From the NCBI GenBank assembly GCA_016205145.1, contig JACQJH010000001.1:420001-452000 (forward strand): a DNA stretch of 32,000 nucleotides. The letters are read 5' to 3'. A model generated the notes under the pieces. The model saw only the letters and a program-made list of their open reading frames with translations, did not search any database and was not told the DNA's origin. Positions within the stretch are counted from its first letter, which is position 1. Every line of letters begins with the position of its first letter. This stretch comes from Candidatus Iainarchaeum sp. Its GTDB lineage: Archaea; Iainarchaeota; Iainarchaeia; Iainarchaeales; JACQJH01. Below, in pieces: positions 945-31,920 of this stretch. Position numbers and translations under genes: made by a program.

Positions 945-1062
945 GATTAGCAGCGTTCAGGCGGCTCCAAGCAGAAGCCCAGCGCCAACCTTTTCCCTGC
1001 AGGTCTTAACTTCCGGGTTCGAAACGAGTCCGGGTGTTTCCCCTGCGGTATGGCCGCTAATC
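945..1062 (-). rRNA. rrf: 5S ribosomal RNA (118 nt)
   Basis: The reverse complement reads GATTAGCGGCCATACCGCAGGGGAAACACCCGGACTCGTTTCGAACCCGGAAGTTAAGACCTGCAGGG...GCCTGAACGCTGCTAATC. It contains the archaeal 5S core CCCGG..TTTCGAACCCGGAAGTTAAG. The 5' GATTAGCGGC pairs with the 3' GCTGCTAATC (helix I). A T7 run follows one nucleotide after the 3' end on the minus strand (A7 at 937..943). Confidence 0.88.
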
Positions 1063-1199: not shown

Positions 1200-1757
1200 C
1201 TACTTTTTCTTTTTCCCCTTTGCCTTTCTGCCGAGAATCATTTCTTCCGCGACTTTCAGGCCTTTTCTCAGCAGGCTTTCCTTTTTCGCGCCAGCGCAGA
1301 TCATTTTTCCGTTCTTGAACAGGAGCAAAGTTATTTTCGGCTCGGCTATGCGCAGTATCGCGCCCGGGAATTGTTCCGGCTCGTATTCGACGTTGTCGAG
1401 GTTCATTGCAATGCTGAACAAGTCAAGGGTCTTGTCGAGGTTTGCCGTCGCAACCAGGTTCACGACCTGGTATTCGACTTTTCTCTGCACTTTTACGGAG
1501 GGCTGGATGTCGTGGATGAGCTTTGACGCTTTTTTTATCCCAAGTTCAATCTGCTCCTCGTTGCTTGCGCCTGAACAGATTATTTTTCCGTTCTTGAACA
1601 GGAGCATTGAAACCTTGGGCTCCTTCAATTTCAGTATCGCGCCCGGGAATTGTTCCGGCTCGTATTCGATGTTCGGAACCGTTACCGCCAAGTTGTACAA
1701 GTCAAGCGTCGCGTTAAGCGTTGCCGAAGCAACCAAGTTCACAATCTGATATTTCAT
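1200..1757 (-). CDS. tbp: TATA-box binding protein
   Basis: Two internal direct repeats are typical of TBP (QIVNLVASATL..EYEPEQFPGAILKL..LLFKNGKIICSGA and QVVNLVATANL..EYEPEQFPGAILRI..LLFKNGKMICAGA). The C-terminal tail is Lys-rich. Confidence 0.95.
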   Translation of the reverse strand: MKYQIVNLVASATLNATLDLYNLAVTVPNIEYEPEQFPGAILKLKEPKVSMLLFKNGKIICSGASNEEQIELGIKKASKLIHDIQPSVKVQRKVEYQVVNLVATANLDKTLDLFSIAMNLDNVEYEPEQFPGAILRIAEPKITLLLFKNGKMICAGAKKESLLRKGLKVAEEMILGRKAKGKKKK

Positions 1758-3585: not shown

Positions 3586-3606
3586 TTCCCTTGTGCGCCC
3601 TGAGTG

Positions 3607-3718
3607 CTGTTGCCGCGGCAACGGTATTTATGCTTAGCAATTTACTCGGCGTATCACGCAGTGATACGCCTTGGTTTCGGACCCGGCGGACGAAATCGCC
3701 GCCGGACGAAATCGGCGG
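3607..3718 (+). repeat. structured intergenic repeat, copy 1 (TTACTC / covarying hairpin / TTGGTTTCG-N-ACCC / ACGAAA-loop hairpin, the last module duplicated)
   Basis: Hairpin 0 is CTGTTGCCG/CGGCAACGG (3607..3624). TTACTC is at 3642. Hairpin 1 is GGCGTATCAC-gca-GTGATACGCC, followed by TTGGTTTCGGACCC. Then come GGCGG-acgaaa-TCGCC and GCCGG-acgaaa-TCGGC. Confidence 0.85.
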
Positions 3719-3756
3719 TGGTCGGATTGCCGTTGTCTGAGGAACTGAACGCGCTC

Positions 3757-4548
3757 ATGGTGAAATACCGGTTCAGGCCGAGCAAGAAGATGGCCCAGCA
3801 TTTCATCATCGACGAAGCAGTTGTGCAATCGCTTGTCAGGCACGCCCGCCTGAAACCGGATGACAGGGTCCTGGAGATTGGCTGCGGCACGGGTTTTCTT
3901 ACGCGCGAACTGCTGAAGCAATGCCATGTCCTCGGAGTCGAGCTTGACGACGACCTGTTCGGGCTTCTTGAAAACGAACTGCCCAAGGAAAACCTTGAAT
4001 TGTTCCACGCGAATTTCCTTGAACTGAATGATTTGGATTACAACAAGGTCGTATCGCTGCCGCCTTACACCATTTCCGCTGCGATAATGTTCCGGATTTT
4101 TGCACACGGCTTCGACCGCGCTGTGCTCGTGTTCCAGAGGGAATTCTGCGAAAAGCTTTTGGCAGAGCCCGGTTTCAGGGAGTACAACGCCCTAAGCGTC
4201 CTGACGTCATACCATTGCTCGGCGAAACTCGCGGGCGACGTTTATTCGAATTCCTTTTTTCCGAACCCCAAGGCGGTTTCCTCGACAATCGTCCTTGAAC
4301 CGGAGAAAAGGTTCGGCTTGGCGAAGGATGAGGCGCTGTTCACGGAATTTTTGAGGGCGGTTTTCAGGTTCCCGAACAAGAATGTGGTGAATGCCCTGAG
4401 GTTTTCCGGCCCGTTCCTTGCGAAGGGCTTCGGCCTGGATGAAAAGGCTTTTGCGGAAAAGGCAAAGTCGTCAGGCCTGCCGGAAGAAAAAGTGAACCTG
4501 CTGGAATGCGAAGATTTTGTAGAAATCTTCAATGCGCTTGCGGAATAG
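3757..4548 (+). CDS. rsmA: 16S rRNA (adenine1518/1519-N6)-dimethyltransferase KsgA/Dim1
   Basis: RPSKKMAQHFIID, SAM motif VLEIGCGTGFLT and SLPPYTISAAI. The start is moved to ATG 3757 because the upstream part of ORF 3604.. reads through repeat copy 1. Confidence 0.9.
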   Translation: MVKYRFRPSKKMAQHFIIDEAVVQSLVRHARLKPDDRVLEIGCGTGFLTRELLKQCHVLGVELDDDLFGLLENELPKENLELFHANFLELNDLDYNKVVSLPPYTISAAIMFRIFAHGFDRAVLVFQREFCEKLLAEPGFREYNALSVLTSYHCSAKLAGDVYSNSFFPNPKAVSSTIVLEPEKRFGLAKDEALFTEFLRAVFRFPNKNVVNALRFSGPFLAKGFGLDEKAFAEKAKSSGLPEEKVNLLECEDFVEIFNALAE

Positions 4549-4557
4549 CTTTTTTTG

Positions 4558-4676
4558 ATGTGGCATGTCATCGCGCAACACCACATATTATGCAACTGCT
4601 TACTCGGCGTTCTGCAAAAAGCAGAACGCCTTGGTTTCGGTATGCGCGGTCGAAAACGCGCCCGGACGAAACCGGC
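4558..4676 (+). repeat. structured intergenic repeat, copy 2
   Basis: Hairpin 0 is ATGTGG..CCACAT (4558..4586). TTACTC is at 4600. Hairpin 1 is GGCGTTCTGC-aaaaa-GCAGAACGCC, followed by TTGGTTTCGG. Then come GCGCG-gtcgaaaa-CGCGC and CCGG-acgaaa-CCGG. The element fills the convergent ksgA/deoA spacer and abuts the deoA stop codon. Confidence 0.85.
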
Positions 4677-11379: not shown

Positions 11380-12281
11380 TTGTGGCCAGCCCCGACCAGT
11401 TCTTTCACGCTTTTCACTTCGTTTTCATTCATCCACGCCTGCATTTCATCGCAGACCTTCCGGAAAACGCCGATTCCCCTGTAATAGATTGCCGAGCCGA
11501 TGCTTGTCGCGCTTGCCCCGGCCATCATTGCCTCGATCGCATCCCTGCCGTTTGAAATTCCGCCGGACGCGATGATCGGAATGTCCACTTTCTCGTAAAT
11601 CTGGTAAATGCACCTGATTGCAATCGGCTTGAGAGCCGGGCCTGAAATCCCGCCGACCTTGTTGTAAAGAACCGGTTTGCGCGCGTCGATGTCGATTGCC
11701 ATTCCGAGCGCAGTGTTTATTGCAGTTATGCCGTCCGCGCCCGCGTCCTCGCACGCCTTTGCGATTTCCGCGACATTGTGCGCCTGCGGAGTCACTTTTG
11801 CAAAAACCGGAATCTTTCCGGAAACGTTTTTGACCGCTGAAACGACTTCCGCCGCGGATTCGCATTTGACGCCGAAAATCATTCCATGCTCTTTCGTGTT
11901 CGGGCACGAAATGTTCAGTTCAAGAAAGTCAGGCTTTTTTCCAGCCAAAAACCGCGAAACTTCGACAAACTCTTCCACGCTTGCCCCGAAAACGCTTGCA
12001 ATGACCGGCGCGTCAATTTTGCCCAGCTTTTCCCATTCGTGCTCCATGCTCTTGTAGCCGGGGCAGGAAAGGCCGATGGCATTCAGCAGGCCGGATTCAA
12101 GCTCTATGACCGTTGGATTCGCCCAGCCGGTCCTCTCCTCTCCGCCAATGGATTTTGTCGTAACGGTCGCGCATCCGTTCTCGACGCATCTTTTCATCAG
12201 GTCCGCGCTGACGTCGAGAATGCCGGACGCCAAAACCGTCGGGTTTCGGAGTTTGACTCTGCAAAGCTCGGTTTCAAGCAT
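11376..12281 (-). CDS. pyrD: dihydroorotate dehydrogenase B catalytic subunit
   Basis: NPTVLASG, NISCPNT, GGISGPALKPIA and ASGGISNGRDA are class 1 DHODH signatures. Confidence 0.92.
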   Translation of the reverse strand: MLETELCRVKLRNPTVLASGILDVSADLMKRCVENGCATVTTKSIGGEERTGWANPTVIELESGLLNAIGLSCPGYKSMEHEWEKLGKIDAPVIASVFGASVEEFVEVSRFLAGKKPDFLELNISCPNTKEHGMIFGVKCESAAEVVSAVKNVSGKIPVFAKVTPQAHNVAEIAKACEDAGADGITAINTALGMAIDIDARKPVLYNKVGGISGPALKPIAIRCIYQIYEKVDIPIIASGGISNGRDAIEAMMAGASATSIGSAIYYRGIGVFRKVCDEMQAWMNENEVKSVKELVGAGHK

Positions 12282-12443: not shown

Positions 12444-12965
12444 ATGCCTGAAATTCATGGCGGCCGCAGCCATTTGCCCGAATTTATTCTTCACCCTGAC
12501 AAGCATTTGGGCGGCGGCATTTATCTGAAGCGGGTCACAGCCGGCGAGCATCTCAGGCGTTTGCCTCGGAATCCTGGCGCATCCGCCGCTGAAGAGGATA
12601 TAATCCATATTGCAAGGGCAACTCCTTATGGTTCCCACGGTTCAATGGATTTGCGGCACGGGTTCGGAGTTGACAACACGCTTGTGTCCCTTAGTGGTGG
12701 CAGGTTCGAGGGCATGAAGTCGCTGGAAATCCGCAGGGATATCCCGTCAGAACATCGCGGCCGCGGAATAGGCACGCAAATGCTTGTCGAGGCGGAACGG
12801 ATTGGGCGAGAACAGGGTTTTGATGTCCTTTGGGCTCACACAGCAAGCGATAACCTTGGGGCGCGCAGGTCATATGAGCATGCCAGATGGACATTTGTAA
12901 GGGAATATTTTCAAACTGGGGAAGGGCAAAGAGTGCTGTATGTAAAATTCTTGAACGATCAATGA
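12444..12965 (+). CDS. GNAT-family N-acetyltransferase
   Basis: Acetyl-CoA binding motif RGRGIGTQMLVEAERIGREQG followed by NLGARRSYEHARW. The N-terminal boundary is uncertain. Confidence 0.7.
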   Translation: MPEIHGGRSHLPEFILHPDKHLGGGIYLKRVTAGEHLRRLPRNPGASAAEEDIIHIARATPYGSHGSMDLRHGFGVDNTLVSLSGGRFEGMKSLEIRRDIPSEHRGRGIGTQMLVEAERIGREQGFDVLWAHTASDNLGARRSYEHARWTFVREYFQTGEGQRVLYVKFLNDQ

Positions 12966-13026: not shown

Positions 13027-13953
13027 TTGGATTTGAACCACAGGCACCTTGTTTCCATCGCAGACCTGTCGCGCAAGGACATTGAAACCATTCTGCAGCG
13101 GGCCGAAAAAATCGAAAAACTGCCGCGCGCTGAACAGGCGAGGATTCTGCCCGACAAGATTTTGGGAACGCTTTTTTTCGAGCCATCCACGCGCACGCGC
13201 CTGTCGTTTGAAAGCGCGATGCTCCGCTCCGGAGGAAAGGTTTTGGGCTTTGCGGATGCGAGCGTTTCAAGCACGAAAAAAGGCGAAACCCTCGAAGACA
13301 CGATCCGCGTTGTAAGCAATTACTGCGACATCATTGCAATGCGCCATCCCGAAGCCGGTTCGGCGGACCGCGCGGCAAAAGTTGCAACCGTTCCAGTCAT
13401 AAACGGCGGTGACGGCCCGAACCAGCATCCAACGCAGACGCTTTTGGACCTTTACACGATTAAAAAGGCGCACGGAAAAATCGACGGCCTGAACATAGGC
13501 ATGCTCGGCGACCTCAAATACGGGAGAACCGTGCACAGCCTTTCCCGCGCCCTCACGCACTTTGACTGCAGGCAGTACTGGATTTCGCACGAATCCCTGA
13601 AAATGCCTGAAGCGGAAAAGCAGTTTGTCGTGGGCGCAGGCAAAAAGTTTTCCGAAGGCGAAAAGCTGAAAGATTTCCTTCCGGAACTGGATGTTTTGTA
13701 CGTCACGCGCGTGCAGGGCGAAAGGTTTCCTTCAAAGGAAGAGTTTGAAAAGGTCAAGGGCTTTTACGTCGTAAGCAAGGACGCTTTGTCGAAGGCAAAG
13801 CCTTCCCTGAAAGTCATGCATCCCCTGCCGCGCGTCGGCGAAATTTCTTTGGACGTGGATTCGACGCAGTTCGCGGTTTATTTCGAGCAGACCGCAAACG
13901 GCGTTCCGATAAGGCAGGCGATAATGTCATTGCTGTTGAAAGTTGAAGTATGA
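13027..13953 (+). CDS. pyrB: aspartate carbamoyltransferase catalytic subunit
   Basis: FFEPSTRTRLSFE, HPTQTLLD and HPLPR motifs. TTG start at 13027; there is no in-frame ATG near the N-terminus. Confidence 0.92.
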   Translation: MDLNHRHLVSIADLSRKDIETILQRAEKIEKLPRAEQARILPDKILGTLFFEPSTRTRLSFESAMLRSGGKVLGFADASVSSTKKGETLEDTIRVVSNYCDIIAMRHPEAGSADRAAKVATVPVINGGDGPNQHPTQTLLDLYTIKKAHGKIDGLNIGMLGDLKYGRTVHSLSRALTHFDCRQYWISHESLKMPEAEKQFVVGAGKKFSEGEKLKDFLPELDVLYVTRVQGERFPSKEEFEKVKGFYVVSKDALSKAKPSLKVMHPLPRVGEISLDVDSTQFAVYFEQTANGVPIRQAIMSLLLKVEV

Positions 13954-13983: not shown

Positions 13984-14121
13984 ATGCTCATGAATTTTTC
14001 CGCTGTTATAAAAAAAGATGCCGGCTGGTTTGTTGCTTATTGTCCTGAACTTGGCGTTGTAAGCCAAGGCAAAACAAAAAAGAGCGCTTTAGCCAACCTG
14101 AAAGTCATTTTTTGTTCTTGA
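13984..14121 (+). pseudogene. HicB/UPF0150-like antitoxin fragment (45 aa, apparently truncated)
   Basis: Not in the ORF track because it is under 60 aa. The translation MLMNFSAVIKKDAGWFVAYCPELGVVSQGKTKKSALANLKVIFCS matches the HicB N-terminal pattern (..KD..G(Y/W)(V/F)A.CPEL.G..SQG.T..EA..NL). It ends early and overlaps the 3' end of the convergent gene by 17 nt. No HicA partner is nearby. Confidence 0.4.
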
Positions 14122-15058
14122 GCAGGCTTAACAGCGAAATCGTTTTTCTTTTTTCCATGCCCATTTCCCTGAACATTTGGACCGCGAAAAGGTGCGGTGC
14201 AAGGATTCCGTTTTCGTAAATTATGCCCGCCACAAGCTCGGCTTCGGTCACGTCGAAGGCAGGATTAGCTATTTTCAGGCTTTTAGGCCTTTCAGCCCAC
14301 ACTTCATCCGGGTCCCTTTCCTCTATTTCTGTGTCGTGCGTGAGGGTTTCCGCGTCAAACTTGTAGGATGACGTCACAACATAGTGCGGAACATCCGCTT
14401 TTTTTGCGGCAAGCGAGATTGCGCGCGTTCCAATCTTGTTTATCGCGCTTCCGTCCGCCGTAACCGAGTCCGCGCCGGAAAAAAAGTAGTCCGCCTTTTT
14501 GATGAACGTTGCTGAGGCCGAGTCGACAATCATTGTTACGGGAATGCCGAAGCGCGAGAGGTTTTCCGCTGTTATCCTGCCCTGATAGCGCGGCCGTGTC
14601 TCGGTGCAGATGACTTCGCTGATTTTCTTGTCCCTCCAGGCCTTTTCCAGCATTGCCTCGATAGTGTTGGAATGGCAGTGCGTGAAGACAACAGAATCTT
14701 TTTCCATCATTTCCGCGCCGATTCTTGCAATCCCGCGCCTTGCATCTTCTGCCCGGTCCTTTGCCTTCGCGCATTCCTCTGCAACAAGCAGTTTCGCCTT
14801 TTCAACGTCTTCTTCTCCTGCGGAGTGCGTGAGAATTATTTTCAGCGCATTCCTCAGGCCGGGTTCTGTGGGCCTTGCCTTGGCCAAAGCGACAATGTTT
14901 TCCTTGAGCTGCTTCCTGAACTGCCCAATGCTTTTAGCATCGCTTCTTCCGGCCCAGCCGGATATCGCGCTTATTGCGGCTTTCAGGATCTTTGACGCGC
15001 CCTGGATGCGGAGTCCGCGTATGTCTTCGGCAATGCGCAGCACGTTTTTGTCGGCCAT
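14105..15058 (-). CDS. eIF-2B alpha/beta/delta family protein, probable ribose-1,5-bisphosphate isomerase
   Basis: 317 aa. FTHCHSNT, TETRPRYQGR and GADSVTADGSAINKIGT are typical of the e2b2/R15P isomerase clade. AMP phosphorylase is encoded in the same window. Confidence 0.65.
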   Translation of the reverse strand: MADKNVLRIAEDIRGLRIQGASKILKAAISAISGWAGRSDAKSIGQFRKQLKENIVALAKARPTEPGLRNALKIILTHSAGEEDVEKAKLLVAEECAKAKDRAEDARRGIARIGAEMMEKDSVVFTHCHSNTIEAMLEKAWRDKKISEVICTETRPRYQGRITAENLSRFGIPVTMIVDSASATFIKKADYFFSGADSVTADGSAINKIGTRAISLAAKKADVPHYVVTSSYKFDAETLTHDTEIEERDPDEVWAERPKSLKIANPAFDVTEAELVAGIIYENGILAPHLFAVQMFREMGMEKRKTISLLSLLKNKK

Positions 15059-16570: not shown

Positions 16571-16686
16571 CTCCGAACCGCGGAGGGCGGCGGTTTCGTC
16601 CGCCGGGTCCGAAACTAAAGCCTATTGCATTGCAATAGGCCGAGTAAGCAATAATGCGTGGTGTCGAAGCAAAGCGGAGACACCAC
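16571..16686 (-). repeat. structured intergenic repeat, copy 3 (inverted relative to copies 1, 2, 4 and 5)
   Basis: Read on the minus strand: hairpin 0 is GTGGTGTC..GACACCAC, then gcattattgc-TTACTC. Hairpin 1 is GGCCTATTGC-aat-GCAATAGGCT (its first pair is a G:T wobble), followed by TTAGTTTCGGACCC. Then come GGCGG-acgaaa-CCGCC and CTCCG-cggtt-CGGAG. It begins directly after the secE stop. Confidence 0.85.
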
Positions 16687-16738: not shown

Positions 16739-16891
16739 TTCTTGGTTTTTTTTGTGAAGGCAAAAAAAGCTTTTTGCGTTTCGCTTTTTTTCCAAGGTTT
16801 TTTTTGCAAGGGCAAAAAAAAGCTTTTTGCGTTTCGCCATTTTTCCAAGGTTTTTTTTGCAACAGCAAAAAAAAGCTTTTTAAGCGTTTGC
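16739..16891. repeat. 3 x ~53-bp tandem repeat of A/T-run hairpins
   Basis: The unit is CCAAGG-T8-GC-nnnn-GC-A8-GC-T5-GCGTTTCGC. CCAAGG recurs at 16792 and 16845, a 53-nt period. Within each unit T8GC/GCA8 can form a 10-bp hairpin, or GCA7/T5GC an alternative one. Confidence 0.85.
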
Positions 16892-17497: not shown

Positions 17498-17971
17498 ATG
17501 CCGGAAATAGGTGTTTTGGTTGAAGGCGGAAAAGCGACAGCGTCCGCTCCGTTGGGCCCGGCTTTGGGGCCTCTTGGAGTTAACATCGGCGAGGTTGTCA
17601 GCCAGATCAACGAGAAGACAAAGGCCTATGCCGGCATGAAGGTTCCGGTCAAGGTAATAGTCGATTCTTCCACGAAAAGCTTTGAAATCGAGGTCGGAAG
17701 CCCGCCTATGAGCGCGCTGGTCAAAAAGGAAATCAGCCTGCAGAAGGGAGCCGCCAACCCAAAGCTTGAAAACGTCGGAAATCTGACAATGGACCAGGTC
17801 AAAAAAATAGCGGAAATGAAGCTTGACGGCCTGACATCCTATTCCATGAAATCCGCGGCGCGCGAGGTCATTGGAACGTGCAATTCCATGGGCGTTTCGA
17901 TTGACGGCAAGAAAGCCAAGGACGTGCAGAGGGAATTCGACGCGGGCAATTTAGATTCAGTGTTCGGCTGA
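17498..17971 (+). CDS. rpl11: 50S ribosomal protein L11
   Basis: VEGGKATASAPLGPALGPLGVNIGEVV and SPPMSALVKKE. ATG 17498 is preceded by GAGGGTGG. Confidence 0.92.
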   Translation: MPEIGVLVEGGKATASAPLGPALGPLGVNIGEVVSQINEKTKAYAGMKVPVKVIVDSSTKSFEIEVGSPPMSALVKKEISLQKGAANPKLENVGNLTMDQVKKIAEMKLDGLTSYSMKSAAREVIGTCNSMGVSIDGKKAKDVQREFDAGNLDSVFG

Positions 17972-19360
17972 AAGCCTTTTTATTGCCTCATCCATGTTTT
18001 CCCCTATTAGATAGCTTATTACTCCGCGGACTTTTTGTTCCAGGCCGTTTAAGCTTTGCGTGCGCCTGCTGAGTTCATTGAATTCGGCTTGCCCCATTCT
18101 TATTGCCCGGTTGAAGCCCCTTTGCGCGATTTCCGTGCCTTTTGGCCCGTATCCCTGGGCAATTTCGGAAAAGTTGTCAAAAAAGTCGCCGAGCACGAGC
18201 CTTCTAGAATATTGTTCAAGGCTTTTCCTTGTTTTTATGCCGCCCAGGCCCAGGCGTGCGGCATAGCGTTTGACGCTTAGATTATCCGGGGCTGAATCTT
18301 CGCCGTACCGCACGCGCCTGTCGGCATTGTCGAAATCCATTGAAATTTGCCTGTGCCCCAATCCCAGATAGCCTATGGCCCTAATCTGGGGCTCGTTTTC
18401 GAGTTCCGGAAAAAAGCGTTTTGCTTCCCCGAACACGCCGCCCTGCAGGTTTTCCCTTATCCTGTTTTCCCTTATGGCGTCGCTTTCGCGGGAAATGTAA
18501 AATTCCTTTTCAAATGCTTTTTGCAGGCCGGCAAGGCTCTCTCCGGCTTGCAGGCGTTTCTTCAGGCCCTGCAAAATCGCATTCGATTCCTCTTCAGCCC
18601 GCGAAATGCGTTCAAGATCCGTTGCATCGTAATATTCGACCGGCATTATTCTTATGCCCTCGCGTGCCAATTCCAGCAACAGCTCGGATGCGAATTCCCC
18701 AAAATTGGAAAAATCGGGGGACGACCTGTAATGGTTCCTGACGTAGTCTTCCGCCTCCTTTTCTGGCAGGCCCCTGTTTCGAAGCGTTTCAAGGGCCGAT
18801 CTGATGTTGGCGGTTTCCGCATTCATATCGGCGATAAACCTTTGCATGTCGGCTTTCTTGAGGTAGGGGGATTCCATAAGAAAAACGTGGTACGGCCTGC
18901 CTTCCGCCCTTGCCGTGCGGATTTTGTCGATTATGGGCCGGGCATCGTGTGCCCGGATGTGCGGGCCGAAAAGCATTGACACGTCCGCCCTGCGCTCGGC
19001 ATCAGCCAAAAAAGGTATTTTCGGTCTAAGAAATATTGCCCCTGCTGTTGCGAGCATTCCGGCTATCACGCCGCGGCGGGTTCGGCCGGTTTTTTCGCTT
19101 TGTGGCATTTCGCGCACGCGCCGCATTGAAAGGTCGGGCCGTGTTTCCTCTCTTGCCGTTTGGCCTGCCCTGTGCCATGCTGCGGCCATTCTTTCGCGGA
19201 GGCCCATCACGGTTTCTGCCGGTGCTGGTTGTGCTTGCGGCGCTGGCTGCGGCTGTGGCGATGGTTGCGTGGGTTTTTTCCTGCCTCCGCCGGTTCTTTG
19301 GCTTCCGCCCGGCCCCTGCTTGCGCCCGCTGTTTCGCCCATTTCCGCCTCTTCTTGCCAT
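17957..19360 (-). CDS. hypothetical membrane-anchored protein with TraB/Tiki/ChaN-like motif pattern
   Basis: 467 aa. The N-terminus is a disordered basic Gly/Pro/Gln-rich stretch (MARRGGNGRNSGRKQGPGG...PQPQPAPQAQPAPAE). One TM helix follows (GVIAGMLATAGAIFL). The domain then carries FGPH, HVFLMES, SRESDAIRENRI and YLGLGH in that order, reminiscent of the GxxH / E / R(D/E) / GxxH pattern of the TraB-Tiki superfamily. This was judged by eye only. Confidence 0.5.
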   Translation of the reverse strand: MARRGGNGRNSGRKQGPGGSQRTGGGRKKPTQPSPQPQPAPQAQPAPAETVMGLRERMAAAWHRAGQTAREETRPDLSMRRVREMPQSEKTGRTRRGVIAGMLATAGAIFLRPKIPFLADAERRADVSMLFGPHIRAHDARPIIDKIRTARAEGRPYHVFLMESPYLKKADMQRFIADMNAETANIRSALETLRNRGLPEKEAEDYVRNHYRSSPDFSNFGEFASELLLELAREGIRIMPVEYYDATDLERISRAEEESNAILQGLKKRLQAGESLAGLQKAFEKEFYISRESDAIRENRIRENLQGGVFGEAKRFFPELENEPQIRAIGYLGLGHRQISMDFDNADRRVRYGEDSAPDNLSVKRYAARLGLGGIKTRKSLEQYSRRLVLGDFFDNFSEIAQGYGPKGTEIAQRGFNRAIRMGQAEFNELSRRTQSLNGLEQKVRGVISYLIGENMDEAIKRLSAEH

Positions 19361-21636: not shown

Positions 21637-21752
21637 CAGGGGTTGCACCCCTTGCAAACCCCTGAAACACGCAATGCTTACTCGGCTTATTGCGAAGCAA
21701 TAAGCCTTGGTTCGTACCCGCCGGACGTGACGGCGAGCCGGACGAAACCGGC
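21637..21752 (+). repeat. structured intergenic repeat, copy 4
   Basis: Hairpin 0 is CAGGGG..CCCCTG (21637..21664). TTACTC is at 21678. Hairpin 1 is GGCTTATTGC-gaa-GCAATAAGCC, followed by TTGGTTCGTACCC. Then come GCCG-gacgtga-CGGC and GCCGG-acgaaa-CCGGC, followed by TTTTT. Confidence 0.85.
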
Positions 21753-21796
21753 TTTTTGGAAAAAGATTTTAAACCCGTTCAAGCCTTATTCTTCTC

Positions 21797-29580: not shown

Positions 29581-30426
29581 ATGGCCGCGCATAATTCGAT
29601 TTTGTTAATCATCAAGCAGCATAACGGCATCGACCAGGTCTCACTGCTCAACAAGCTTTCCCAGAACTATGCGAGCATGAATTCCGCGCGCGCCGCATTG
29701 AGCCGCGCCTTGAAGGACCTTTCAGCTGTCGGTCTTATCCAGAAAAAGGATAACGCGATTTTTGTCACGGACAAGGGAAACACACTAATCCACTCGGAAA
29801 TGAAAAACAAGCTGTTGCTCAAGCTCAACACTTCCATAAAGCAGAAGGACAGCCTCAACCACATCGACGAAATTGTCAGCCAGCTTTCAACTCTCATTGC
29901 AAGGGCGAAGGCCGACTCCGACCTGCTGAAAGCCGCAAAGGGCAGCACGGACTTCTATTTGTCCGACCTCAACGAGCTGAGCGAAGGCCTTGACCGGCGC
30001 ATAAAGCAGTTCTCCTATCTTGACGGCGTCCTCAAAAACCAGATAACTGCATTGCAGGAACTCAACTTCTACGACGCAAGGCAGTTCGAATGGGCTTCTC
30101 AGGCCCTCGAACTCATAAAATCGGTTCCATCGCAGACCGAAGGCAACACTTTCACTGTGGAATGCCTCAACGAATCCTTTTTTGAAACAGTGAAGCAGGC
30201 CTTCCAGCCGAAAGTGCAGGGCAAAAACATAGTGCTCGAAGACCAGTCACTGCCGAACCTGCTCATGCTCTTGCAGGAAAACCATTCGCTCGAATACAAC
30301 ACAGTCAACCTCTATTTTGCCACAATCCGCATCAGAATTTCCTTTCCGCAAATCCTGTTGTTCGGGCCGTACCAAAAGCTCGAGGAACTGCAGAAAGCAG
30401 GTGCCTTGGCAGCGGCAAAAAAATAG
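29581..30426 (+). CDS. hypothetical protein with N-terminal winged-helix (MarR/ArsR-like) domain
   Basis: ILLIIKQHNGIDQVSLLNKLSQ...ALSRALKDLSAVGLIQKKDNAIFVTDKGNTL resembles a wHTH. The remaining ~200 aa are helical and of unknown function. Confidence 0.55.
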   Translation: MAAHNSILLIIKQHNGIDQVSLLNKLSQNYASMNSARAALSRALKDLSAVGLIQKKDNAIFVTDKGNTLIHSEMKNKLLLKLNTSIKQKDSLNHIDEIVSQLSTLIARAKADSDLLKAAKGSTDFYLSDLNELSEGLDRRIKQFSYLDGVLKNQITALQELNFYDARQFEWASQALELIKSVPSQTEGNTFTVECLNESFFETVKQAFQPKVQGKNIVLEDQSLPNLLMLLQENHSLEYNTVNLYFATIRIRISFPQILLFGPYQKLEELQKAGALAAAKK

Positions 30427-30480
30427 TTATTTGCCAGCCTGGAAAACTTTTGGGAAAAGTTTTATCAAAACTCACGGAAC

Positions 30481-30504
30481 AACCCGTTGCTTGCGCAACG
30501 GGTT
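30481..30504 (-). other. 10-bp perfect hairpin with GCAA tetraloop in the tRNA-Gly 3' trailer
   Basis: The minus strand reads AACCCGTTGC-gcaa-GCAACGGGTT, starting 2 nt after the tRNA 3' end. The stem CCGTTGC/GCAACGG resembles hairpin 0 of repeat copy 1. Confidence 0.4.
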
Positions 30505-30540
30505 TTGCGCCCGCCGGGATTCGAACCCGGGTCATGACCT

Positions 30541-30649
30541 TGTTCCGCACGGAATGTCGTCCTTTACAGCAGGAATTTTTGCTGGGGTTTACTCGGCGTA
30601 TTGCAAAAGCAATACGCCTTGGTTTCGAACCCGCCGGACGAAACCGGCG
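30541..30649 (-). other. tRNA-Gly intron (109 nt)
   Basis: It lies between the exon boundaries given above. About 82 of its nucleotides are repeat copy 5, read antisense. Confidence 0.75.
30567..30648 (+). repeat. structured repeat, copy 5 (inside the tRNA-Gly intron, antisense to the tRNA)
   Basis: Hairpin 0 is CAGCA-ggaatttt-TGCTG. TTACTC is at 30589. Hairpin 1 is GGCGTATTGC-aaaa-GCAATACGCC, followed by TTGGTTTCGAACCC and then GCCGG-acgaaa-CCGGC. It ends 1 nt from the 5' splice site. Confidence 0.85.
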
Positions 30650-30843
30650 TGGGAAGGTCAGATGCTACCATTACACCACAGGCGCGCCTGCATTGTTTTT
30701 TTTGCTGAAGCAGACGATAAAAAGGTGAAAGTTAGATTTTTTAAAACCGACAATTTTTTGCCGCTCCGCCGGAACGAGTTGCCAGAAAAGCTTTTATAGG
30801 CTGCAACCGTTTCTTTTTTTGCCAGCTTTTTTGGTGATCGTAT

Positions 30844-31920
30844 ATGCCCGCCAAGGTAACGAATCGAGCCAAGCCGAAATCCGGGGCAAAGGCCGATTTG
30901 GAGTTGCTTCTTGAACTGATGAACCTTTTCGGGGTTTCGGGCAGCGAGAAAAGCGTGCGCGATTTCATAATCAAAAAGATCCGGCCGCACGTCGATTCGA
31001 TCAAGGTCGACAGGCTCGGCAACCTTGTCGCGACGCAGAAAGGCAGGAAGCCGAAGATAATGCTTGCCGCGCACATGGATGAGATCGGCTTGATGGTGAA
31101 GAGCATCGACCATACCGGCAGCCTGTTCCTTTCCGAAATTGGTTCAATGGCTTCGAAAACCCTTCTTGGCCAGCGCGTCCTCGTGCAATCCGGCAAAGGC
31201 CTGTTGCCTGGCGTGATTTCAACCAAGGCGATTTCCAACTGGGTTGAATCGGACAATTCCGATTCGGAGCTGAAAAACATGTTTGTCGACACCGGCCTCG
31301 ACCTGGCTGCAGTGAAGCGCGCCGGCGTAACCGTTGGAAGCACGGTTTCCCTTGTGCAGGACAATGTTTTTCTTGCAGGCGGCAGGCTTGTCTGCGGCAA
31401 GGCCCTGGACGACCGGGTCGGCTGTTTTGTGCTCATCGAGCTTGCAAGGCGCCTGAGGAAAACGCCGGAAGAAATAGATTTTGTTTTCACTGTGCAGGAA
31501 GAGGTTGGGTTGTATGGCAGCAGGACAAGCGCGTTCTCGGTCGACCCCGACATCGGCATAGCGGTTGACGTGACGAATTCGAATGACGTGCTTGAAGACC
31601 GGCCGACAAAGATTCTGGGCAATGGCCCTGTGCTCATAGTCAAGGATTCGGACATGATTGCAAGCAAGTCCATCAATGACGCGCTTATCGCAATAGCAAA
31701 GCGGAGGAAGGCATCATTGCAGCTTGCGGTGATGAGCGGCGGCACTACCGATGCGTTGAGCATTTCTCTTTCACGCGAGGGCGTTCCTGCAACCGTTGTC
31801 GGCGTTCCGGTAAGGAACATGCACACTGTTTTCGGCATCGCTTCATTGCAGGACATCGAAGAGCTTGTTTTGCTGCTGGAGGATTTTTTGAAAAAGCCGC
31901 CGAAAATCCGCCCGCAGTGA
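30844..31920 (+). CDS. M42-family (TET/FrvX-like) metallo-aminopeptidase
   Basis: LFGVSGSEKSVRDFI, AAHMDEIGLMV, ALDDRVGCFVLIE and VQEEVGLYGS are metal-ligand motifs of the M42 peptidase family. Confidence 0.88.
   Translation: MPAKVTNRAKPKSGAKADLELLLELMNLFGVSGSEKSVRDFIIKKIRPHVDSIKVDRLGNLVATQKGRKPKIMLAAHMDEIGLMVKSIDHTGSLFLSEIGSMASKTLLGQRVLVQSGKGLLPGVISTKAISNWVESDNSDSELKNMFVDTGLDLAAVKRAGVTVGSTVSLVQDNVFLAGGRLVCGKALDDRVGCFVLIELARRLRKTPEEIDFVFTVQEEVGLYGSRTSAFSVDPDIGIAVDVTNSNDVLEDRPTKILGNGPVLIVKDSDMIASKSINDALIAIAKRRKASLQLAVMSGGTTDALSISLSREGVPATVVGVPVRNMHTVFGIASLQDIEELVLLLEDFLKKPPKIRPQ

Follow-up and report, generated by a model that had tools for sequence, protein, structure and literature searches.

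Canonical archaeal tRNA introns lie between positions 37 and 38 and are removed at a motif known as the bulge-helix-bulge (BHB), in which two 3-nt bulges flank a 4-bp central helix. The tRNA-Trp intron of Haloferax and other Euryarchaeota carries, in addition, a box C/D guide RNA. Short hairpin-forming intergenic repeats are known as repetitive extragenic palindromic (REP) sequences and bacterial interspersed mosaic elements (BIMEs) in Bacteria, as archaeal MITEs (miniature inverted-repeat transposable elements) and as palindrome-associated elements. For the Thermoproteales, whole introns, including their BHB boundaries, are described as common to different tRNA genes (Fujishima et al. 2010, as summarised in PMC4090602 and PMC4033280). 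In Caldiarchaeum subterraneum, intron gain and tRNA fragments at the tRNA-Thr locus were connected with a 1.8-kb element encoding a recombinase (Sugahara et al. 2012, PMC3293823). Here, we analyzed 32,000 nt of Candidatus Iainarchaeum sp. (contig JACQJH010000001.1, positions 420,001 to 452,000; the whole stretch is called the window), which contain a tRNA-Gly(CCC) gene with a 109-nt intron. Judged from its sequence, the gene appears functional and its intron appears to have taken in one copy of a structured repeat that is new and specific to the lineage. The locus combines two known phenomena, namely the BHB introns of Archaea and mobile elements at tRNA genes.

In position, geometry, 3-nt bulges and 4-bp central helix the intron agrees with the canonical BHB introns, and its removal by splicing is to be expected. 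It differs from them in its length of 109 nt, in consisting to more than half of a dispersed intergenic repeat and in drawing its outer helix from this repeat. As in the Thermoproteales, intron sequence is shared with other loci of the genome, which implies movement at the DNA level. In contrast to that system, only 64 of the 109 nt are shared, the 5' boundary alone falls on a splice site, and copies elsewhere lie in ordinary spacers without a BHB motif. Sharing of the Thermoproteales type was not found among the few tRNA genes of the lineage that were examined: the four other copies lie outside tRNA genes, and a tRNA-Thr intron at a related locus (L014; loci outside the window carry the prefix L) is unrelated to the repeat. 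With the Caldiarchaeum locus it has in common a mobile element implicated in tRNA remodelling and the presence of tRNA fragments or att-type repeats nearby, here at L017 and L019; the repeat is, however, only 64 nt long and non-coding, and no recombinase was found in the window. Like REP sequences, BIMEs and MITEs, the repeat is small, non-coding, high-copy and intergenic, forms conserved hairpins, varies in the number of its terminal units and breaks assemblies. With five copies in 32 kb and others in relatives, it shows the many short, dispersed, non-coding intergenic copies that characterize MITEs. Unlike these elements, it has no terminal inverted repeats, target duplications or REP-type GTAG motif and is strikingly associated with tRNA boundaries. 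We know of no RAYT, TnpA or other transposase that partners it, in the way that an HUH transposase partners REP/BIME-like or IS200/IS605-derived elements, whose imperfect palindromes are recognized on one strand as single-stranded hairpins. The Haloferax tRNA-Trp intron is similar in that an archaeal tRNA intron houses a separate structured RNA module, but the module described here is a dispersed repeat in antisense orientation and contains neither C/D boxes nor a K-turn.

The gene consists of the following parts, given in window coordinates:

30506..30685 (-): intron-containing tRNA-Gly(CCC) gene of 180 nt, with a mature tRNA of 71 nt and no encoded CCA; supported by RF00005, ARAGORN and the L019 orthologue
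30650..30685 (-): 5' exon, tRNA positions 1-37, with the anticodon CCC at 30651-30653
30541..30649 (-): intron of 109 nt at the canonical 37/38 position, with a helix-flanked BHB motif (hBHBh')
30506..30540 (-): 3' exon, tRNA positions 38-73
30541..30585 (-): non-repeat remainder of the intron, 45 nt; probably the ancestral intron, as suggested by its likeness in layout to L025

The Rfam family RF00005 matched positions 30506-30685 (-) with 43.5 bits (gathering score 29), the anticodon loop being interrupted by one insert of 112 nt. ARAGORN missed the gene in default mode, but reported tRNA-Gly(ccc) at c[30506,30685] with a 109-nt intron when introns were allowed. The spliced 71-nt sequence forms a clean cloverleaf with G1-C72, C2-G71, G3-C70 and A73 (ARAGORN), and the intron boundary can be moved by one base due to an A/A ambiguity. 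No second tRNA was detected in the window by Rfam or by ARAGORN with introns allowed. Two Logan contigs of SRR12113383 are 100% identical to the window and end inside the repeat copies c1 and c4 (listed below), as expected for a high-copy repeat, which breaks short-read assemblies. The Logan contig spanning the tRNA passes unbroken through the copy in the intron (c5), indicating that the intron is no assembly chimera.

A BHB scan recovered the full motif, tgacc TTCC (CA/C) gc ... gc GGAA (CA/A) ggtca, with the slashes marking the splice sites. The inner helix is the 5-bp anticodon stem, while the central helix of 4 bp is formed by U32 U33 C34 C35 and the GGAA near the 3' end of the intron (30543-30546). 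Two 3-nt bulges, CA/C and CA/A, lie on opposite strands and hold one splice site each. The outer helix h' comprises 2 bp (G-C, C-G), a bulged U and 3 more bp; on the tRNA strand it is built from GCCGG, the terminal bases of the P2 hairpin of c5, and CCGUGC. A fold constrained to the BHB motif has an energy of -76.6 kcal/mol, 3.4 kcal/mol from the minimum free energy fold (-80.0 kcal/mol). With the hBHBh' motif intact, the splicing endonuclease would be expected to excise all 109 nt and RtcB to join the exons, so that the insert would be tolerated and the element would be harmless to the tRNA. The first-pass annotation of this DNA, made from the letters alone, had proposed a tRNA-Gly(CCC) with a clean cloverleaf and a 109-nt intron (30541..30649) at 37/38, which is borne out by RF00005 and ARAGORN. 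It had also pointed to a BHB-like pairing of UUCC with GGAA flanked by 3-nt bulges, which proved to be a complete motif with the same core in L019.

The repeat was defined by TTACTCGG, which is present five times in the window. A covariance model, R1, was built on eight copies. Searching with R1 returned exactly five full-length copies in the window with 67-89 bits (E 4e-18 to 2e-24), all other matches reaching 19 bits at most. The 64-nt core starts with YUUACUCGGC, followed by the P1 hairpin (10 bp), the linker GCCUUGGUUUCGGACC and the P2 hairpin (6 bp, loop ACGAAA). P2 units are of the type CGGCGG-ACGAAA-CCGCCG and occur once or twice per element, a second P2-type unit being present in three copies. 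The elements occupy intergenic spacers at a density of ~1 copy per 6 kb in the window:

3639..3717 (+): copy c1, core 3639-3701 plus an overlapping second P2-type unit; 83.3 bits
4597..4676 (+): copy c2, core 4597-4661 plus a P3 unit; 78.1 bits; downstream of KsgA
16588..16650 (-): copy c3; 84.7 bits; FtsZ-NusG spacer, antisense to both genes
21675..21753 (+): copy c4, core 21675-21735 plus a P3 unit; 67.4 bits; between ribosomal protein L12 and LonB
30586..30649 (+), antisense to the tRNA: copy c5, full 64-nt core equal to intron nt 1-64; R1 positions 1-64
30595..30618 (+): P1 hairpin of c5, 10-bp stem and AAAA loop
30632..30649 (+): P2 unit of c5, CGCCGG ACGAAA CCGGCG

The copy in the intron is the top-scoring one and nearest to the consensus (89.3 bits, E 1.9e-24), which substantiates the earlier statement that the intron carries a dispersed repeat antisense to the tRNA; likewise, the other four copies lie outside tRNA genes, as had been stated. 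The share of the intron had been given as ~82 of 109 nt. The repeat does make up the majority, but secure homology extends over 64 nt, that is 59% of the intron and not ~75%. The extra 18 nt correspond to a hairpin at 30567-30584; hairpins are also present upstream of the other copies, but with sequences of no relation to this one, and none precedes the c1 orthologue at L015. A distance of 1 nt between copy and 5' splice site, as originally described, is obtained only under the alternative boundary of ARAGORN; otherwise the copy begins exactly at intron nt 1.

Both hairpins of the repeat covary. Altogether, 97.6% of the cells are paired, 8 of the 16 pairs change on both sides, and compensatory changes are found across the copies at half of the P1 pairs (5/10). 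None of 500 shuffles reached the observed values, and slid controls were 28-50% paired. An alternative pairing proposed by RNAalifold (GGUUUCG/CGAAACC) showed no covariation and is broken in several copies. Inspection by eye for hammerhead, K-turn/K-loop and box C/D motifs gave no fit. The other copies were also considered as BHB introns in their own right, but flanking BHB-like motifs were no commoner than chance (1.27 per strand for random 64-nt segments) and lay at inconsistent distances. The orientation of the copies to their flanking genes follows no rule (5 sense, 2 antisense). Copy c4 has a 5' extension of ~45 nt in common with L013 (82% identity over 98 nt).

Copy c1 sits in the DUF655-KsgA spacer, sense to both genes. 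Its two overlapping 16-nt P2 units (3686-3720) differ by a compensatory pair and share a CGCCG segment, so that the two hairpins cannot form simultaneously. As the orthologue at L015 has one unit, the unit number appears to shift by slippage or unequal exchange. The start of KsgA is probably a TTG just after c1, preceded by GGTG (window 3722-3760), which places c1 inside the conserved L21e-RpoF-DUF655-KsgA array, presumably one transcription unit. A long GTG-initiated open reading frame (ORF; 3604-4548) runs through c1.

The assignment of a functional strand to the repeat has a weak basis. G.U pairs are confined to the strand opposite the tRNA (6 cells, and no A.C cells), which is in agreement with the wobble-pair argument of the first-pass annotation; these cells, however, trace to ~3 independent changes, one of them at the loop-closing pair of P2, and the folding energies of the two strands are nearly equal (-224 vs -221 kcal/mol summed over the 8 copies). 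We therefore take the G.U pairs as a weak indication. The orientation of c5 had been called puzzling on the basis of this strand assignment, so that the puzzle is as weakly founded as the assignment. The hairpins of c5 itself contain only Watson-Crick pairs.

To delimit the family, we compared the repeat with several sequence collections. Rfam contains no family for it (whole window, gathering scores and E up to 5); the only matches of the window were a 5S rRNA, the tRNA and one chance match. The pattern TTACTCGGC-N-GCYTTRGTTTCG gave 8 bacterial matches in 185,579 representative genomes, about the number expected by chance, and none in an archaeon. Viral contigs gave 0 matches and plasmids none, and the sole phage match, 25 nt within genes of enterobacterial phages, is attributable to chance. 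A metagenome scan yielded three true copies (L013, L014 and L015) together with three chance matches, in which a single marine sequence recurred. The relative represented by L015 is a close one (DUF655 protein 95% identical); this locus carries the orthologue of c1 in the DUF655-KsgA spacer, with a P1 that is different in sequence yet paired and with one P2 unit instead of two. No full repeat copy was found in relatives at ~50% protein identity. Relatives lacking the repeat have much shorter spacers elsewhere in conserved gene arrays (L12-Lon: 69 nt in L017 vs 308 nt in the window). The named homologues of the window proteins belong to Candidatus Diapherotrites/Iainarchaeum, the closest being only ~50% identical, and the host is an uncultured Diapherotrites-like (DPANN) archaeon. 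We regard the repeat as a new structured family of DPANN archaea; in these searches it appeared only in close relatives of this host. We infer that it is mobile; the flanks of the 8 copies contain no inverted ends beyond CGGCG/CGCCG and no shared direct repeats or target duplications, and no transposase, integrase or recombinase domain was detected in the ~40 window ORFs scanned against Pfam.

To learn about the history of the intron, we turned to orthologous loci. A relative with an M42 peptidase 69% identical to that of the window (L019/L020) carries the same tRNA gene upstream of M42, and more distant relatives were reached via a neighbouring 281-aa gene. At L019 the exons are near-identical, the only differences in the acceptor stem being C-G to U.G and U.G to C-G, and the splice core is identical (TTCC(CA/C)gc...gcGGAA(CA/A)). 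The L019 intron is 44 nt long and consists of two P2-type units, one of which matches the P2 of the window at 15/16 positions, followed by the shared 3' end; P1 and the linker are missing. L025 has a 55-nt intron at 37/38 without the repeat and without an outer helix, and the gene is uninterrupted in L017, L018 and L024. M42 homologues at 53-57% identity (L021-L023) have no adjoining tRNA-Gly. The gain and remodelling of archaeal tRNA introns is an unsettled question, and here the same tRNA gene is seen in four states among related genomes: without intron (L017, L018, L024), with a repeat-less intron (L025), with hairpin units only (L019) and with the complete repeat (window). Wherever an intron is present, that is in three of these genes, one and the same splice motif is seen. 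The three intron-less loci form one clade, from which L025 stands about as far as the window lineage does. At L014, a tRNA-Thr(UGU) gene (26-127) is interrupted at the canonical position by 30 nt that form a good BHB and are unrelated to the repeat, indicating that short introns are normal in this group.

The non-repeat remainder of the window intron reads C-CAGCA-AAAAUUCC-UGCUG-UA-...-GGAACA. It contains the hairpin CAGCA-AAAAUUCC-UGCUG (30567-30584) and the GGAA that pairs with U32-C35, and it resembles the L025 intron in its layout:

first after the splice site: one nt in L025, one nt in the window remainder
hairpin stem: CAGC...GCUG in L025, CAGC...GCUG in the window remainder
next two nt: UA in L025, UA in the window remainder
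spacer: ~19 nt in L025, 18 nt in the window remainder
3' end: GGAACA in L025, GGAACA in the window remainder

A second line of comparison concerns the position of the repeat relative to tRNA genes. In every tRNA-associated copy found, the element is antisense to the tRNA and its P2 end faces the tRNA boundary. At tRNA-Gly(CCC) of the window and of L019 the P2 end lies at the 5' splice site. At L014, a full copy (1460-1523) follows the 3' end of tRNA-Lys(CUU) by 3 nt, again antisense and with the P2 end nearest to the tRNA. In L017, the native tRNA-Gly(CCC) 3' end is followed after 2 nt by a P2-type hairpin, AGCCGTCACGTCCGGCT. This hairpin has an exact 15-nt match in c4 (E 0.006, one of five queries) and is joined to a TCGTAC linker and then to a P1-like 7-bp hairpin; the whole (13371-13414) mirrors the arrangement at L014. 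Finally, 14 nt of the tRNA-Gly 3' end are duplicated at the start of the L019 contig, and a P2 unit lies 1 nt from this duplicate. The sample is biased, since two of the loci were fetched for containing tRNA-Gly. Nevertheless, the recurring hairpin beside tRNA ends offers a lead on the mechanism.

Some features of these loci deserve mention in their own right. The 14-nt duplicate of L019, TGCGCCCGCCGGGA, lies 79 nt downstream of the gene (1-34 and 99-113). The hairpin unit beside it, GGGCGATGACGG, has a second copy in the L019 intron, and the start of the contig at this duplicate is probably an assembly break at a repeat. In L017, sequence from the 3' part of tRNA-Gly(CCC) occurs as three direct repeats, all beginning in the anticodon loop (11922-11963, 12687-12728 and 13329-13370); they flank two small islets, which include a PemK toxin gene, and the last repeat agrees with the native sequence as in L018. 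These repeats have the signature of integrase att sites and mark tRNA-Gly(CCC) as an integration hot spot in this phylum. In the window, no att-type duplicate of either exon was found (11-mers or longer).

Taken together, the explanation that we favour, with a probability of about 0.62, is that the 64-nt repeat is a passenger copy that inserted into a pre-existing intron at 37/38 and is removed by normal tRNA splicing. The starting point would have been an older, short intron of the L025 type (~45 nt). In the ancestor of the window lineage and L019, the repeat would then have entered this intron as DNA at its very 5' end, flush with the 5' splice site and oriented such that the pre-tRNA carries its reverse complement; the outer BHB helix would now consist of the element's terminal stem and the old intron sequence with which it pairs. 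Later, P1, the linker and the old hairpin would have been lost from the L019 lineage through an internal deletion. We propose this direction of events, insertion followed by deletion in L019, as the simplest history. Since the remainder shares the layout of L025, the element most likely entered an existing intron and not a bare anticodon loop. Of the two histories considered in the first-pass annotation, the landing of an element in a tRNA that tolerates it via splicing is thus the better one, except that an anticodon loop had been envisaged as its target. The other, in which an intron-derived element spread to spacers, is not supported, as only one boundary of the copy lies at a splice site and no consistent BHB surrounds the other copies. 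If correct, our explanation would mean that dispersed non-coding elements can be taken up by an intron and that a portion of such an element can be recruited for the structure recognized by the splicing enzyme.

Several points weigh against this explanation. The likeness between the remainder and L025 resides in short motifs (CAGC...GCUG UA, GGAACA), which makes it weak to moderate as evidence of common descent, and it is partly forced by the need to pair with UUCC. As to the direction of events, a single ancestral intron with one loss is no more parsimonious than separate gains. An insertion before the split from L019 requires purifying selection or gene conversion to account for the near-consensus state of c5. 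Splicing itself is predicted from the motif, and the genes for the splicing endonuclease, and with them its type, and for RtcB lie outside the window. The flush position at the splice site and the recurrence at tRNA 3' ends hint at something other than random insertion, which predicts neither; either tRNA boundaries may be targeted, or a hairpin or a role in processing may be selected for at these places. It is conceivable, although we consider it unlikely, that the repeat or its terminal 16-18 nt hairpin unit seeks out tRNA boundaries instead of being a random passenger. In that case a dispersed non-coding repeat would build and reshape archaeal tRNA introns, targeting could proceed via a recombinase at tRNA att sites or via RNA ends produced by the splicing endonuclease or RNase Z, and the spliced-out intron could pair with the many sense copies in mRNAs.

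Other histories have to be set against the insertion of a passenger copy into an older intron. The repeat or its P2 units may have created the intron in the anticodon loop of an uninterrupted gene, with the BHB present by chance or evolved soon after. Three relatives indeed have an uninterrupted tRNA-Gly(CCC), the clade relationships are compatible with a separate gain, and the outer helix is supplied by repeat-type units placed directly at the 5' splice site in the window as well as in L019, the two members of the window clade that have the intron. However, GGAA of the central helix and the 3' bulge belong to the non-repeat part, so the repeat alone cannot make a BHB, and the repeat-less L025 intron, with the same site, 3' end and CAGC-hairpin layout, points to an older intron. 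We regard creation by the repeat as rather unlikely; if it did occur, the locus would be a direct snapshot of the gain of an archaeal tRNA intron from a dispersed non-coding element. The flow may also have been the reverse, the P2 unit being native to the intron or 3' trailer of tRNA-Gly(CCC) and the dispersed 64-nt family having arisen by its capture and spread into intergenic DNA. The L017 hairpin, 2 nt after a native tRNA-Gly 3' end and with its 15-nt exact c4 match and TCGTAC, would fit such an origin, as would the P2 unit beside the 14-nt tRNA-Gly 3'-end duplicate of L019 and an L019 intron that has P2 units only. Yet the tRNA-Gly trailers of L024 and L025 are without a P2 unit, the 15-nt match has an E of only ~0.006 in one query among five, nothing that could copy RNA into DNA, such as a reverse transcriptase, was seen, and the same arrangement occurs at tRNA-Lys within a full element, so that the association is with tRNA boundaries in general and not specifically with tRNA-Gly. 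Capture from tRNA-Gly seems quite improbable to us.

A very improbable explanation, in our judgement, is that the intron copy is itself functional. Archaeal introns are usually circularised after splicing, and the excised, probably circular intron, with the reverse complement of a repeat found in many mRNA spacers, might act in trans on those mRNAs by antisense or loop-loop pairing, or the hairpin might serve as a processing signal at tRNA boundaries. P2 units have been kept at the splice site in two lineages that have diverged to 69% protein identity, no other copy is as near to the family consensus as c5, four tRNA boundaries show one and the same polarity, and several copies are sense within operons, so that complementary targets would exist. 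This is countered by the loss of P1 and linker in L019, which kept only the 16-nt hairpin unit, by L025 and the intron-less relatives, which manage without it, and by the hairpins beside the tRNA 3' ends of the window and L019, which are unrelated in sequence. That the locus is merely a tRNA pseudogene broken by the insertion is hardly credible: 109 nt is long for an archaeal tRNA intron, but the cloverleaf is intact, the BHB is complete, and the diverged orthologue L019 keeps the exons and the splice core, with acceptor-stem changes that stay paired.

Two further features lie downstream of the tRNA gene:

30481..30504 (-): hairpin lying 2 nt beyond the 3' end of the tRNA; structure kept in L019, sequence entirely different
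30443..30477 (strand not assigned): block near-identical between window and L019, AAAAyTTTTGGsAAAAkTTTTATCAAAACTCACGG

The block resembles the BRE/TATA-like (transcription factor B recognition element and TATA box) sequence AAAGCTTTTATAG upstream of the M42 peptidase gene (~30786-30801). It could represent either oligo-U terminators for the tRNA or a plus-strand promoter of the BRE/TATA-like type. In the latter case, the tRNA gene would be transcribed antisense, with c5 in sense. Relative to the neighbouring 281-aa gene, the tRNA-Gly gene of the window is inverted in comparison with all four outgroup loci (29581-31920 vs L017, L018, L024 and L025). An IF-2B gene lies between tRNA-Gly and the 281-aa gene in three outgroups; in the window it is 15 kb off (14105-15058 (-)).

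The gene content of the window is that of archaeal housekeeping, with TBP, L21e, RpoF, DUF655, KsgA, AMP phosphorylase and pyrimidine synthesis as well as FtsZ, NusG, L11, L1, L10, L12, LonB, Rad50, L44e and the M42 peptidase (358 aa). A stand-alone 5S rRNA gene (945-1061 (-)) adjoins the TBP gene (1200-1757 (-)), whose internal direct repeats explain the repeat families D5, D6 and D13 in the repeat listing of the window. A 467-aa ORF (17957-19360 (-)) with a basic, proline-rich N-terminus of low complexity lies between L11 and L1 on the opposite strand. It was considered as a candidate transposase and contains no Pfam domain; in the relative L017, L11 and L1 are adjacent without this ORF between them. 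Finally, the long FtsZ-NusG spacer contains a T/A-rich tandem repeat (16744-16880) with a 53-nt period and ~2.5 copies, which adjoins c3.

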